Virus record (IMG/VR): IMGVR_UViG_3300028591_003415
Span: 1-31,464 of that record
Source: a virus
DNA: 31,464 nucleotides
Reading direction: 5' to 3' (one strand)
Below the pieces are notes generated by a model. It had not been told where the DNA came from. It saw only the letters and a program-made list of their open reading frames with translations, and did no database searches. How positions within the stretch are numbered: position 1 is the stretch's first letter; each line of letters starts with the position of its first letter. Below are positions 1 through 31,464 of this stretch, piece by piece. Made by a program: the position numbers and the translations under genes.

Positions 1-2
1 TA

Positions 3-329
3 AAAGGGCATCCAGTTTCTTCATTAGAAGAAGTAAAGGCATCATCCATTGATTTTGATGGTAGCATCTTTTATTTTCCTGATATAGCAAATAAAAGAAT
101 ATACACAAAAACAGTTGGAATGGATGGCGTTGCACTTCTCAATATGTATGAATTAAAACCCCTTCCTGCTGATCCAGTAGAAGGAGATTATATTACGCGT
201 ACAGAGTTTGACCAAGCATTGGCTCGTATTTCTGAATTACTCTCAACAAAAGTAACAAAGGCCGCAGCCGCTGGTGTGGCATAGCCAACTGAACCAACGC
301 CCCCTCAATCATACAAGGAGGTTTTCTAA
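3..329 (+). CDS. Protein of unknown function, C-terminal part. The 5' end lies outside the window. One in-frame TAG (283-285) is read as Gln.
   Basis: Frame 3 is open from the window edge to TAA at 327-329 apart from one TAG. Tail is ...AAAAGVAQPTEPTPPQSYKEVF. The next gene follows directly in the same frame after the TAA. Confidence 0.45.
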
Positions 330-575
330 TTGAACAATATAAATCCAATTCAAGTAATGATTCAGATGGCAAAGTCAGGACAAAATCCTGAACAAATGAT
401 GTTGTAGTATCTACAACAATAGGCATAGCAGAACCCAATGGGTTAGAACCTCCTTAGTCTGGCCCAGGCTGGAAATACCGCAGATATTGAAAAAATCGCT
501 CGTAATATCTGCGCCCAGCGTGGAATAGACTTTGATAAAGAATTTACCGCTTTCAAACAAAGTTTAGGACTATAA
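330..575 (+). CDS. Small Gln-rich protein of unknown function, 81 aa, with 4 in-frame TAGs. Probable TTG start.
   Basis: SD AAGGAGG at 315-321 lies 8 nt before TTG at 330. The frame is open to TAA at 573-575 only if TAG at 405, 420, 426 and 444 is sense. Product: LNNINPIQVMIQMAKSGQNPEQMMLQYLQQQAQQNPMGQNLL...FKQSLGL. Confidence 0.4.
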
Positions 576-642
576 GCGCGCAAGTCATAAACTTATGTCC
601 AGAAGCGATAAATAATATATTTATTAAAGGAGGACATATGTT

Positions 643-1464
643 ATGTTCAATTCAAACGATGGTTATTCTTTAGCTGACATCGCTGCTGCGACTGGTAATG
701 GCCGTGGCGGTTATGGTGGAGATGGTTTCTTTGGTGGATCTGGTTGGTGGATAATCCTTCTCTTCCTCTTCGCTTGGGGCGGATGGGGAAATAATGGTGG
801 TTGGAGTAATGGCGGAGGCAACGGTGCCGCAACCACTATTTATGGATTAGATAGTCTTGGAGCCACAAGAAATGGTTTCTATGACCTCAACTCTAGCGTT
901 TTAACTGGTTTTGCTGACACAGCCGCTGCTGTTGCCGCAGGTACTGCTGCTGTTCAGAGTGATATCAGTGCATTAGGTTTACAAAGTTGCCAGAATACTA
1001 ATGCTATTACTTCTGCTATTACATCTGGAACTATGGCTAATATGTAGAATACCTTTACTCTTTCTACACAACTCGCCGCAATGCAGGCCGCACAGCAACT
1101 CGCAAACTGCAATACTGACCAAAATGTTACTAATTCCTTCGCACAACTCAATTATAATCTCGCAACCGAGGCTTGTGCTGACCGTGCCGCAGTCACTACT
1201 GCTGCTCGTGATGTTATTGATAACCAGAATGCTAATACTCGTCAGATTCTTGACTTCTTAGTGCAAGACCGTATTACTGCTCTTACTACTGAAAATCAGG
1301 CACTCAAAGGTCAAATCTCACAGAGCGAGTAGAACGCTTATCTCTTATCTCAGTTAAAACCATGCCCAATGCCCGCATATCTCACTTGCAACCCATATAG
1401 CAGTTGCGGATGCGGCAATAACAACTTGGGCTTCTACTATGGAACAGGTAATATTATTGCCTAA
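643..1464 (+). CDS. Gly-rich membrane-associated protein. Track ORFs 643..1047 and 1081..1332 are one gene joined through TAG 1045-1047. Reading TAG 1330-1332 as sense extends it to TAA 1462-1464 and adds a Cys-rich tail.
   Basis: SD AAGGAGGA at 627-634 lies 8 nt before ATG 643. All three pieces share one frame. There is a hydrophobic segment WWIILLFLFAWGGWG and a coiled-coil-like C-terminal half. The read-through tail is ...QNAYLLSQLKPCPMPAYLTCNPYSSCGCGNNNLGFYYGTGNIIA. Confidence 0.55.
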
Positions 1465-1489
1465 TCCATAAACCAAAAGGAGGAAAGAA

Positions 1490-1909
1490 ATGGAATTATT
1501 TGCAAATGATAGACAAACCGTGGAAGCAAATGAATCTGTGATGTTCCAAACTGCGCTCTCCTCAGGCTCCTCTTCTATTCTTTGGAGAGTTGGTTCTGGT
1601 ATCGTCACTCTAAGAGGTATCGGCCCACAGATTCGTAGTAGATTCCGCGTATCATATCACGGCAATGTTGCTCTTTCAGAAGGAGCAGAAGTTGCCCCAA
1701 TTGAAATGGCAGTGCGTATAAGTGGGGAAGTCCTTGCTTCCTCACGCACTGTTAGTACCCCAGCCGCAGTAGGTGAATTCAATAGTGTAGGTGCTACTAC
1801 ATTAGTTGATGTTCCTGCTGGATGCTGCGTGCAAATTTCTCTTGCTAACATTGGAACTTCTTCTACTGATACCGAAAATATTGATTTAATAGTAGAAAGG
1901 GTGGCTTGA
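1490..1909 (+). CDS. Protein of unknown function, 139 aa.
   Basis: SD AAAAGGAGG lies before ATG 1490. The ORF is clean and ends in TGA 1907-1909. Confidence 0.65.
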   Translation: MELFANDRQTVEANESVMFQTALSSGSSSILWRVGSGIVTLRGIGPQIRSRFRVSYHGNVALSEGAEVAPIEMAVRISGEVLASSRTVSTPAAVGEFNSVGATTLVDVPAGCCVQISLANIGTSSTDTENIDLIVERVA

Positions 1910-1910
1910 T

Positions 1911-29391: not shown

Positions 29392-29829
29392 ATGGCATAT
29401 ATAAAAGATAATTGGGATGCTGAACATGGCGTAGCAAGGTGCGTTATTGGTTATACTACAAAAGCAGGAATACCTCTAACTGGAATTGGTATTGCTGAAT
29501 GCCATCCAGAGGATACGGATTGTATGAGCCAACTTACTGGTGGTATTATTGCTGAATATCGTGCTGAAATTGATTTATTGAAAAAGATAAATAATTATGA
29601 AATAAAGCCAGGTATTAGCGCACTAAAACATGTTTATTGCACTATGCGTCATAGCAAACGATATAATGAAAAAAGTTATGAAGCAATTAGGCTAAAAAAG
29701 GAGTTAGCGCATTTGATGGATGAATTAGAAGAAAATAATAATGCCATCAAAGAGTTGAAGAAACACTTAGCCACTTATATTGAAAATAAAGAAAAACTAT
29801 ATCAAAAAATTAGAAAAGGTCAAAAATAA
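29392..29829 (+). CDS. Protein of unknown function, 145 aa.
   Basis: AAGGAGA SD. Clean ORF. Ends in TAA. Confidence 0.55.
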   Translation: MAYIKDNWDAEHGVARCVIGYTTKAGIPLTGIGIAECHPEDTDCMSQLTGGIIAEYRAEIDLLKKINNYEIKPGISALKHVYCTMRHSKRYNEKSYEAIRLKKELAHLMDELEENNNAIKELKKHLATYIENKEKLYQKIRKGQK

Positions 29830-29873
29830 GTAAATAAAAGATTAAAAATTTCATAATAATTACAGGAGAGGAA

Positions 29874-30128
29874 GTGGTTACTATTCTCAAAGGTATATTA
29901 TTAGGAATTTTAATTTATGTTGCTATTATTCCAATAGTAGAGGAACTCGCAACAGTCATCGTTTAGGCTCTCGAAGTGGTAAAAGGAAAATTAATTTTAA
30001 TTATGACTAAACTACAAGAAGAGGCCAAAGCAATAAAATCAACTGAGGGAGTAAAAACCCACGCAATTAGTTTTGCGGTAACAGACGATGAAGAAGAGTA
30101 CGAGGAGGATTATGAGGAAGATGACTAA
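29874..30128 (+). CDS. Small membrane protein of 84 aa with an N-terminal transmembrane helix and an acidic C-terminus (holin-like). 1 in-frame TAG. GTG start.
   Basis: AGGAGAGG lies before GTG 29874. Product: MVTILKGILLGILIYVAIIPIVEELATVIVQALE...DDEEEYEEDYEEDD. The stop TAA overlaps the start of the PhoH gene. Confidence 0.4.
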
Positions 30129-31386
30129 CTTAACAGTGAGTCCCAATATAAAATTTTATGATACAAGTTCATTATTATTAAAATCTAATACTTTATTTGA
30201 TGATAATGAATTCTTCGTTATTTCATCAGTAACTTTAGAAGAACTAGAAAACATTAAAAATTCTTTAACAAGAGATGCTGATATTAAATATGCTGCTAGA
30301 AAACTTATTCAAAGTTTAGATGAAAATGAAGATAAATATGATGTTCATATTTTTAAAGAGAACATGCTTCTCCCTATAAAAGAAAAAGATTTATCAATTA
30401 ATAATGATATGAAAATCTTGGCGACTGCCATTGATTATAATAATAATATAAGACAAGATGAAGTAATTTTTGTAAGTAATGATAGATGCTTAAAACGTAT
30501 TGCTAATTTATTCTTTGGTAATGGCATGATAATGTCAGTTGGAGAAGACGATGACGATTATAAAGGTTACTTAGATTATTCCTTTGCTGATAGTGAAATG
30601 GAATAGTTCTATTCTCACCCAAACTCAAATACTTTAAATGCTTATATAAATTAGTACATAATTATAAGAAACCGTGACGAGGAAATCGTAGATAAAAGAG
30701 TTTGGACAGGATAGACTTATCGTCCTATTAGTTATGATGTATTTGACTCAAAACATTTTGGAAGAGTCAAACCAATAGATATTTAGTAGTAGTTTGCGGC
30801 AGACAGTTTCATGCACAATAAAATAACAATGATAAAAGGTCCGGCTGGTAGTGGAAAGACACTTCTGACGTTGGGCTTTTTATTTAGTCAATTAGAAAAA
30901 GGTAAAATTGATAAAATAATTGTTTTTTGTAATACTGTAGCTGCTAAAAATTCAGCAAGACTTGGTTTCTTACCTGGAACGCGTGATGAGAAACTCTTAG
31001 ATTCACAAATAGGAAATCTTCTTATTAGTAAAATAGGAGGACGCACGGAAGTAGAACGCTTAGTTGATGAAGAGAAACTAGTCTTGTTACCAATGAGTGA
31101 CATACGTGGTTATGACACAACAGGAATGCGCGCAGGAATTTATATTTCTGAAGCACAAAATTTAGATATTTCACTTATGAAATTAGCATTATAGCGTATA
31201 GGTGAAGATAGTATTTGTGTTATTGACGGCGATGAAAAAACGCAAGTTGATGATGTGGCATTTGCTGGTGCTAACAATGGTATGCGCAGAGCCTCAAAAG
31301 TTTTTAGAGGTAGCGATGTCTATGGAGAAGTGGCACTAACACAAATCCATAGAAGTAAAATAGCAGAAATCGCATAGAGAATGTAA
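30121..31386 (+). CDS. PhoH2-type protein, an N-terminal PIN domain plus a PhoH-like ATPase. About 421 aa. 8 in-frame TAGs, including three consecutive ones (30784-30792).
   Basis: Track ORFs 30088..30606 (PIN) and 30811..31194 (PhoH, Walker A GPAGSGKT) share one frame. The 204-nt segment between them is open except for 6 TAGs. The frame continues through TAG 31192 and 31375 to TAA 31384-31386, adding a PhoH C-terminus (RIGEDSICVIDGDEKTQVDD...). Start at ATG 30121 is preferred, with GAGGAGG 11 nt upstream. ATG 30088 is an alternative. Confidence 0.7.
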
Positions 31387-31392
31387 ATAACT

Positions 31393-31424
31393 GGGGCTGG
31401 TATAAAACCAGCCCCCTTATTTTC
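31393..31424 (+). terminator. Rho-independent terminator after the PhoH gene.
   Basis: GGGGCTGG tataaaa CCAGCCCC, then CTTATTTT. Confidence 0.55.
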
Positions 31425-31439
31425 ATAAGGAGAAAAAAT

Positions 31440-31464
31440 ATGACTAATGCTGAAATAATATGGA
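31440..31464 (+). CDS. Start of a CDS. The 3' end lies outside the window.
   Basis: AAGGAGAAAAAAT lies before ATG 31440. The frame is open to the window end. Confidence 0.3.

Follow-up and report, generated by a model that had tools for sequence, protein, structure and literature searches.

The window analysed here, the whole 31,464-nucleotide (nt) stretch of IMG/VR virus record IMGVR_UViG_3300028591_003415, has a guanine-plus-cytosine (GC) content of 34% and, judged by comparison with related genes, uses in-frame TAG as a sense codon inside conserved genes, with glutamine as by far the best assignment on the codon evidence. Very probably, the window belongs to a large uncultured tailed phage in which TAG has been reassigned from stop to Gln (code 15 of the National Center for Biotechnology Information); the suppressor would be encoded outside the window, and the expression of the TAG-containing genes may be timed. 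The full phage is probably 130-240 kb in size.

Genes were called with TAA and TGA as the sole stops and with a codon-usage score trained on long open reading frames (ORFs), which gave 52 tightly packed genes at a coding density of 91%. With the first ATG taken as the start, 64 in-frame TAGs are spread over 15 of the 52 genes (29%), leaving 37 genes free of TAG; stop-to-stop frames add a few upstream TAGs. An earlier note on this DNA, made from the letters alone, had proposed that TAG is sense and most likely Gln and had counted 67 TAGs in 16 genes, a small difference that comes down to which starts are chosen. The coordinates quoted in that note are all exact. Its statement that every gene ends in TAA or TGA was correct, as the terminators are 34 TAA, 18 TGA and no TAG, compared with about 11% of long ORFs terminating in TAG in standard-code relatives. 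The 15 TAG genes comprise 3349 codons with 64 TAGs and not one in-frame TAA or TGA, and in the off-frames of the window genes the ratio of TAA plus TGA to TAG is 5:1; chance is excluded as the source of the in-frame pattern. When TAG is made a terminator and the same starts are kept, the translated share of the window is 66% instead of 91%, and the sequence therefore needs translation table 15 rather than table 11. Naive ORF coverage under alternative codes was tried as a test and set aside: at 34% GC, reading TAA as sense yields even more coverage than reading TAG as sense, so homology and codon substitution were used instead.

In Pfam and PDB alignments, homology runs through the TAGs of RuvC, PhoH2, the radical-SAM/SPASM enzyme, the dUTPase and the GIY-YIG gene. 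The RuvC-like Holliday junction resolvase (7084-7575, minus strand, ending in TGA) contains nine TAGs in 163 codons, and its Pfam domain, residues 4-145, spans all nine; a search against PDB gave no significant match for this protein. In PhoH2 (30088-31386, plus strand), which joins a PIN domain to a PhoH ATPase, eight TAGs occur, including TAGTAGTAG at 30784-30792. Six of them fall in the 204-nt gap that separates the standard ORFs 30088-30606 and 30811-31194, as had been claimed, and both the Pfam domains (PIN, residues 25-140; PhoH, 237-424) and the PDB match 3B85 extend across TAGs. All eight are kept in contigs of three other samples with 98% nt identity to the window end. The radical-SAM/SPASM enzyme (3732-6077, minus strand; CteB-like) carries seven TAGs, five in the extein and two in an intein, that join the standard ORFs 3732-4187, 4293-5132 and 5145-5615 and shorter N-terminal pieces. 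The joined product matches Radical_SAM, SPASM, Hint_2 and LAGLIDADG_3 in Pfam, and without the intein it aligns to PDB 5WGG (CteB) over residues 35-376, across the splice junction, in agreement with the three-ORF join proposed earlier. The two halves of the dUTPase (7572-8078, minus strand) are separated, again as proposed, by a single TAG (7890-7892), and the Pfam domain (residues 25-135) and the alignment to PDB 3H6X (residues 15-153) both cross it; this TAG falls in a variable column and is uninformative on the residue.

Two endonuclease-like genes show the same behaviour. The GIY-YIG homing-endonuclease-like gene with helix-turn-helix domains (14966-15730, plus strand) contains five TAGs although it lies within an otherwise largely TAG-free block, and its Pfam domain (residues 1-81) and its PDB match to I-TevI (1MK0) run across TAG. 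Codon 19, counted from the ATG at 14966, is indeed the TAG at 15020-15022 that the earlier note had placed at a family-invariant Gln, but the residue is not invariant, I-TevI having Ser. The other gene (17039-18055, plus strand; entered in the earlier note at 17087), with three Cys-rich repeats and a DUF2726 domain, has 14 TAGs in 338 codons. Neither this gene, nor RuvC, nor the Cys-rich 278-residue protein at 2865-3701 (minus strand; four TAGs) contains a standard-code ORF of at least 80 residues; the earlier note had listed all three among the genes that the standard-code ORF track misses or fragments. Two TAGs sit only three codons ahead of a stop, one in the GIY-YIG gene, where it is ambiguous between sense and stop, and one in PhoH2.

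That the TAGs might be genuine stops, in pseudogenes, split genes, assembly errors or rare readthrough, is next to impossible. Standard-code gene callers do fragment the TAG genes, as in the Joint Genome Institute contig L002, and the window itself holds no suppressor tRNA, yet such stops would have to occur as 64 TAGs without a single TAA or TGA, inside enzymes that look essential, RuvC among them, with homology to either side, with the TAGs kept across independent samples and with exchange only for Gln codons. A contig in the European Nucleotide Archive equals window positions 1-12519 with one mismatch, and its stored gene calls already read through TAG, so public pipelines already treat the sequence as recoded.

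The identity of the inserted residue could not be taken from protein databases. RuvC homologs there have Q at all nine TAG positions, but this evidence was rejected as circular because the DNA of one entry (P0001) does not give its protein under table 11, the entries having been translated with TAG as Q; the analysis was therefore carried out at the codon level on DNA loci. The closest relative, L207, has 84-96% nt identity to the window. Between the two, 27 TAGs are common, eight window TAGs are CAA or CAG in L207, and four L207 TAGs are CAA or CAG in the window, with no other change, so that all 12 differences involve Gln codons, mostly CAA. Since an exchange of TAG and CAA takes two substitutions, this pattern is a signature of synonymy and not of mutational proximity.

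Conserved columns give the same answer. In a RuvC codon table of the window and 18 IMG/VR relatives, the TAGs at positions 8, 67, 124 and 137 are CAA or CAG in almost every relative that lacks TAG there, standard-code relatives included, position 74 is CAA in six relatives, and the remaining four TAGs fall in variable columns (E/K, N, A/Y and T/K). Codon alignments of all window proteins with the ORFs of 178 related loci placed Q at PhoH2 TAG234 in 94 of 96 sequences (TAG in the other two) and at TAG369 in 74 of 96. Position 19 of the GIY-YIG gene is Q in 19 of the closer relatives, TAG in 22, and K, L or S in two each; in the 17039 gene, 48 of 86 sequences have Q at position 26 and 41 of 82 have it at position 173. 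When the cultured standard-code Bacillota phages Alicyclobacillus KKP_3916, Geobacillus E3, Bacillus Tsamsa and Enterococcus H1 were aligned, all four had Q at PhoH2 positions 234 and 369, and position 189 was Q, Q, E and E. Their PhoH2 extends two residues beyond the C-terminal TAG430, which indicates that this TAG is read through as well. The comparison of TAGs with homologs that had been suggested for checking thus returned Gln in the conserved RuvC and PhoH2 columns and homology that continues downstream of the TAGs. Finally, a likelihood test with substitution frequencies from the same alignments, applied to 54 TAG positions of equal weight, ranked Q first, with a lead of 24 nats over K, 35 over E and 88 over W; the commonest codon aligned to TAG over these positions was CAA. 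Weighing against a Gln reading, variable columns (K, E, N, D) account for about half of the TAG positions, and these do not discriminate on their own.

The expected decoder, a suppressor tRNA with the anticodon CUA, was found in the nearest TAG-recoded IMG/VR relatives, where arrays of tRNA genes lie 4-9 kb upstream of RuvC. L008, whose RuvC is 82% identical, carries two adjacent tRNA(CUA) genes at 1229-1379, and L009, which comes from a 239.6-kb contig and whose RuvC is 75% identical, carries one at 3955-4029. The wider RuvC/PhoH2 family contains the standard, TAG-to-Gln and TGA-to-Trp codes together, each recoded type with its matching suppressor: members with in-frame TGA at Trp positions (L018 and L020-L022) carry a Trp-like tRNA(UCA), the L020 copy at 11863-11934 on the minus strand, and standard-code members end RuvC in TAG. 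By inference from these relatives, the decoder of the window phage would be a phage-encoded tRNA(CUA) located outside the window.

Several negative results count against this reading. As the earlier note had seen, the window has no tRNA gene, by ARAGORN or by Rfam at gathering thresholds; L207-L210, the closest relatives, have none less than 10 kb from RuvC; scanning metagenomes with the first suppressor type of the relatives gave 17 loci, none attributable to the window phage; and no gene for a release factor or an aminoacyl-tRNA synthetase occurs among 40 window proteins scanned (30 against Pfam, 10 against PHROGs). The window flanks that could be reached through exact-protein matches held no suppressor tRNA. 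It is nevertheless highly unlikely that TAG is read as Gln by a decoder of the host's own, either a host suppressor tRNA or a TAG-reading host, with no switch driven by the phage. The missing tRNA in the window and in the 20-kb loci of the closest relatives would fit such a host, as would the report that only 40% of TAG-recoded genomes yielded a suppressor tRNA (Borges et al., bioRxiv 10.1101/2021.08.26.457843). However, code and phage tRNA go together in this family, in TAG-recoded and TGA-recoded members alike, and 37 of the 52 window genes avoid TAG entirely, which would be needless in a TAG-reading host. No bacterial lineage is known to read TAG as Gln.

The suppressors of the relatives are of two types. 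The first shares 64-65% identity with the phage's own tRNA-Gln(CUG); its 1-72 pair is mismatched, and residue 73 is G. The second is 71% identical to Escherichia coli trpT, with the anticodon loop CUCUAAA in place of CUCCAAA (CCA to CUA); the E. coli amber suppressor su+7, a tRNA-Trp with anticodon CUA, receives mainly Gln. A blastn search of the suppressors against E. coli genomes returned no match, and the comparison was made directly with trpT and glnV/glnW; nearest-neighbour typing among phage tRNAs was ambiguous. That TAG instead encodes Lys, Glu, Trp, Tyr or pyrrolysine is hardly credible. Many TAG positions align to K or E in relatives, with K second in the likelihood test, one relative's suppressor type has the tRNA-Trp-like body just described, and ARAGORN labels tRNA(CUA) as Pyl. 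Set against this are the lead of Q in the same test, the 12 of 12 differences from L207, the strongly conserved Q columns (PhoH2 234 and 369; RuvC 8, 67, 124 and 137) and the Gln charging of su+7-type tRNAs. Pyrrolysine in particular is hard to reconcile with TAGs in 15 unrelated genes, and no pyl genes were seen among the window proteins scanned. Some distant phages differ in their decoder: the contigs L098 (18988-19079) and L147 (9454-9544) have a tRNA(CUA) of about 91 nt with a long variable arm and a class II shape (Ser/Leu/Tyr-like), a form that also speaks for another residue, and a different meaning of TAG in those phages is a possibility.

If TAG encodes Gln through a phage suppressor, the arrangement of TAG genes may carry a timing signal. 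A block of 35 same-strand genes at 9235-29829 (plus strand) includes 31 genes without TAG, among them phosphoesterases, a major vault protein (MVP)-like gene, an HNH gene, an RNA ligase, a PurA-like gene, an AAA_33 kinase and an SPFH/flotillin gene; its four TAG genes are the GIY-YIG gene, the 17039 gene and two small genes. A 40-nt repeat, TTGAYT-N17-TATAAT-N3-TATAGAAA, occurs in nine copies, all on the plus strand within 9132-25075, where none is expected by chance, and every copy lies 48-71 nt upstream of a TAG-free gene. The copies are at 9132-9171, 11384-11423 (ahead of the MVP-like gene), 13951-13990 (ahead of the HNH gene), 19292-19331, 19817-19856 (a weaker copy), 20745-20784, 22493-22532 (ahead of the PurA-like gene), 23708-23747 and 25036-25075, and a similar promoter-like site precedes 29392. 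The repeat looks like a family of strong host-type (sigma70-like) promoters for early genes. It also occurs in relatives, for example in L200 at about 1652-1712; a 61-nt match of this tRNA-bearing contig to window positions 13947-14007 had been considered as synteny and was discarded as merely the common promoter repeat.

Glutamine codon choice is divided along the same line. TAG genes contain CAA and CAG at 80/16, against 84/100 for TAG-free genes (Fisher p = 5e-10). CAG makes up 25 of 25 CAA-plus-CAG codons in the SPFH gene (27816-29207), 11 of 11 in the PurA-like gene (22554-23705), 22 of 25 in the MVP-like gene (11449-13896) and 8 of 10 in the TAG-free gene at 21568-22458, while RuvC, PhoH2, the GIY-YIG gene and the 17039 gene specify Gln by CAA and TAG and never by CAG. 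This CAG bias exceeds the general bias toward G-ending codons of Lys, Glu and Leu.

We infer that the TAG-free block and its promoters fit the published model of an early/late code switch. TAG-free genes, lying mostly in one block, would be transcribed from the nine sigma70-like promoter copies and, early in infection, could be read by host translation machinery that is still unmodified. TAG genes would yield full-length protein only once the suppressor had accumulated, and this late set would comprise RuvC, the dUTPase, the radical-SAM enzyme with the Cys-rich protein, PhoH2, several unannotated genes, the two homing-endonuclease-like genes and the intein. A TAG in the mobile endonucleases that lie within early transcription units would delay their expression.

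The timing part of this proposal faces contrary observations. A sigma70-like site, TTGACA-N17-TATACT, precedes a TAG-containing operon, ahead of the 99-residue gene at 6070-6369 (minus strand; one TAG); the genes with extreme CAG usage (MVP-like, SPFH and PurA-like) also have higher GC and higher GC at third codon positions (GC3), and high-CAG genes may be recent acquisitions; RuvC, dUTPase and PhoH2 are not classical late genes of structure or lysis; and no structural or lysis gene was identified in the window. A non-regulatory origin, in which TAG drifts as a neutral synonym of CAA and CAG and its uneven spread follows gene age, expression level or horizontal origin, draws on the same GC and GC3 differences, on the frequent turnover of TAG with CAA or CAG between close relatives and on at least one of these genes, the MVP-like one, which is missing from L207, 90-96% identical, and is thus suggested to be a recent acquisition. 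We regard it as rather unlikely, given that each of the nine promoter repeats stands ahead of a TAG-free gene, that the same early/late pattern recurs across unrelated recoded phage clades (Borges et al.) and that TAG-rich homing endonucleases in early units match a case described by the same authors.

A stronger version of timed expression would partition Gln decoding as a whole, one tRNA set moving the cell out of a CAG-reading state and into one that reads CAA and TAG, and so turning early genes down and late genes on. The idea arises because TAG-free genes that use only CAG stand beside CAA/TAG genes and because the suppressors resemble tRNA-Gln(CUG) and tRNA-Trp, and we consider it quite unlikely. 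The Trp-like CUA suppressor could also be a stepping stone between the TGA-to-Trp and TAG-to-Gln codes of this family.

Three mobile elements carry TAGs, namely the GIY-YIG gene, the DUF2726-type 17039 gene and the intein of the radical-SAM gene. The intein (4206-5207, minus strand; 334 residues, 291-624 of the protein) contains a Hint and a LAGLIDADG endonuclease domain, begins with Cys1, ends with Asn334 followed by Cys+1, and is inserted just ahead of the first SPASM Cys. It has all the features of a class 1 intein with LAGLIDADG: the termini, the domains, absence from orthologs and an extein restored on removal. The intein is missing from the radical-SAM orthologs in L008 and L207, and L207 also lacks the 17039 gene, which marks both as mobile elements using the phage's code; the intein and the homing endonucleases have adopted it. 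L207 has two further genes of note, at 417-1205 and 20104-20492: a SAM-synthetase-N-like gene is found where the window has the 17039 region, and a Thg1-like gene (tRNA-His guanylyltransferase family) lies about 3.5 kb beyond the window start.

At the left end, on the plus strand, are a small gene at 120-329 (one TAG, 282-284; ending in TAA), a small Gln-rich gene at 357-575 (four TAGs, ending in TAA; relatives have Q at two of the four positions), a Gly-rich 273-residue protein at 643-1464 and a DUF6782-like putative metallopeptidase at 2522-2839 (two TAGs). The Gly-rich protein matches phrog_16490 in PHROGs, and its two TAG positions are Q in six of nine and eight of nine relatives, the latter at position 230. 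A 150-residue gene matching phrog_4257 (6487-6939, minus strand) has three TAGs. On the plus strand there are also a 53-residue ORF of uncertain start at 9970-10131, with a TAG as codon 3, and a 114-residue Cys-containing protein at 18532-18876 with two TAGs. A PHROGs scan of 10 small proteins gave no function for the unannotated TAG genes, and these could therefore not be called structural or lysis genes.

Some neighbouring genes deserve mention in their own right. The radical-SAM/SPASM gene lies directly upstream of the 278-residue Cys-rich gene, the C-terminal half of whose product is packed with CxxxC repeats, and the two may be a phage-borne pair of maturase and substrate. The MVP-like protein of 815 residues (plus strand) is a homolog of eukaryotic major vault protein (Pfam domains MVP_shoulder and Vault_3; a PDB match to 7PKZ/4HL8 that spans about 380 residues at E = 1e-18), and its matches among GenBank phages are limited to three huge uncultured phages (LR756500/1/3, 41-43% identity). 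The PurA-like gene (plus strand) encodes a 383-residue distant homolog of adenylosuccinate synthetase with a GDEGKG loop. An RNA ligase, a polynucleotide-kinase-like AAA_33 protein and three metallophosphoesterases (genes at 15711-16985, 26005-26460, 26621-27199, 10144-10989 and 24356-25039, all on the plus strand) could form an RNA or tRNA repair set. The SPFH/flotillin gene is likewise on the plus strand.

Annotation under table 11 destroys about a third of the genes of the window, including RuvC, PhoH2, the radical-SAM enzyme and two endonucleases. The window is a well-resolved addition to the large recoded phages and provides material on code change over short evolutionary distances; it opens no new question, is of modest specialist interest and matters mainly for correct annotation.

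Phage recoding of TAG to Gln was reportedly described by Ivanova in 2014. We take the two suppressor types of L008 to resemble the E. coli supE (tRNA-Gln CUA) and su+7 (tRNA-Trp CUA) routes; those are chromosomal mutants with partial suppression, whereas the relatives' tRNAs are phage genes that would serve a genome-wide reassignment. In phages of standard-code hosts, TAG-to-Gln recoding is established, with a share of recoded genes of 26-71% per clade, and a recoded codon in an intron endonuclease of an early unit has been argued to delay expression; accessories of the code change, release factor 2 (RF2) and an aminoacyl-tRNA synthetase, occur in some clades only and are not required (Borges et al., bioRxiv 10.1101/2021.08.26.457843). 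For crAss-like phages, Peters et al. (PMC9523058) proved code 15 by proteomics. Babkin et al. 2023 (PMC10607447) describe Phassvirus phAss-1 as a 136-kb phage in which about 41 ORFs contain TAG and three genes encode suppressor tRNAs. It too is a large uncultured TAG-recoded phage, and the window has no nucleotide similarity to any GenBank phage in a megablast search of 14 kb of its sequence.

Compared with the code 15 phages of gut and rumen (crAss-like, Lak, Jade, Sapphire, Agate, Garnet, Amethyst and Topaz), the window differs in that its TAG genes are mostly genes of DNA metabolism and unannotated genes, with no identified structural or lysis genes, and in that it holds no suppressor tRNA, RF2 or synthetase; a terminase gene is absent as well. 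It shares with them TAG at Gln positions and TAA/TGA stops, partial recoding (29% of its genes, within the range of the clades), a suppressor tRNA(CUA), here in its relatives, standard, TAG and TGA codes side by side in one family, and a homing endonuclease rich in the recoded codon inside an early unit. The share of recoded genes and the contig sizes of the relatives (130-240 kb) resemble those of the large clades of the Jade, Sapphire and Agate type. The window is thus a further example of a described kind, the code 15 phages, and, apart from the suppressor tRNA, displays all the defining features that part of a genome allows to be tested.

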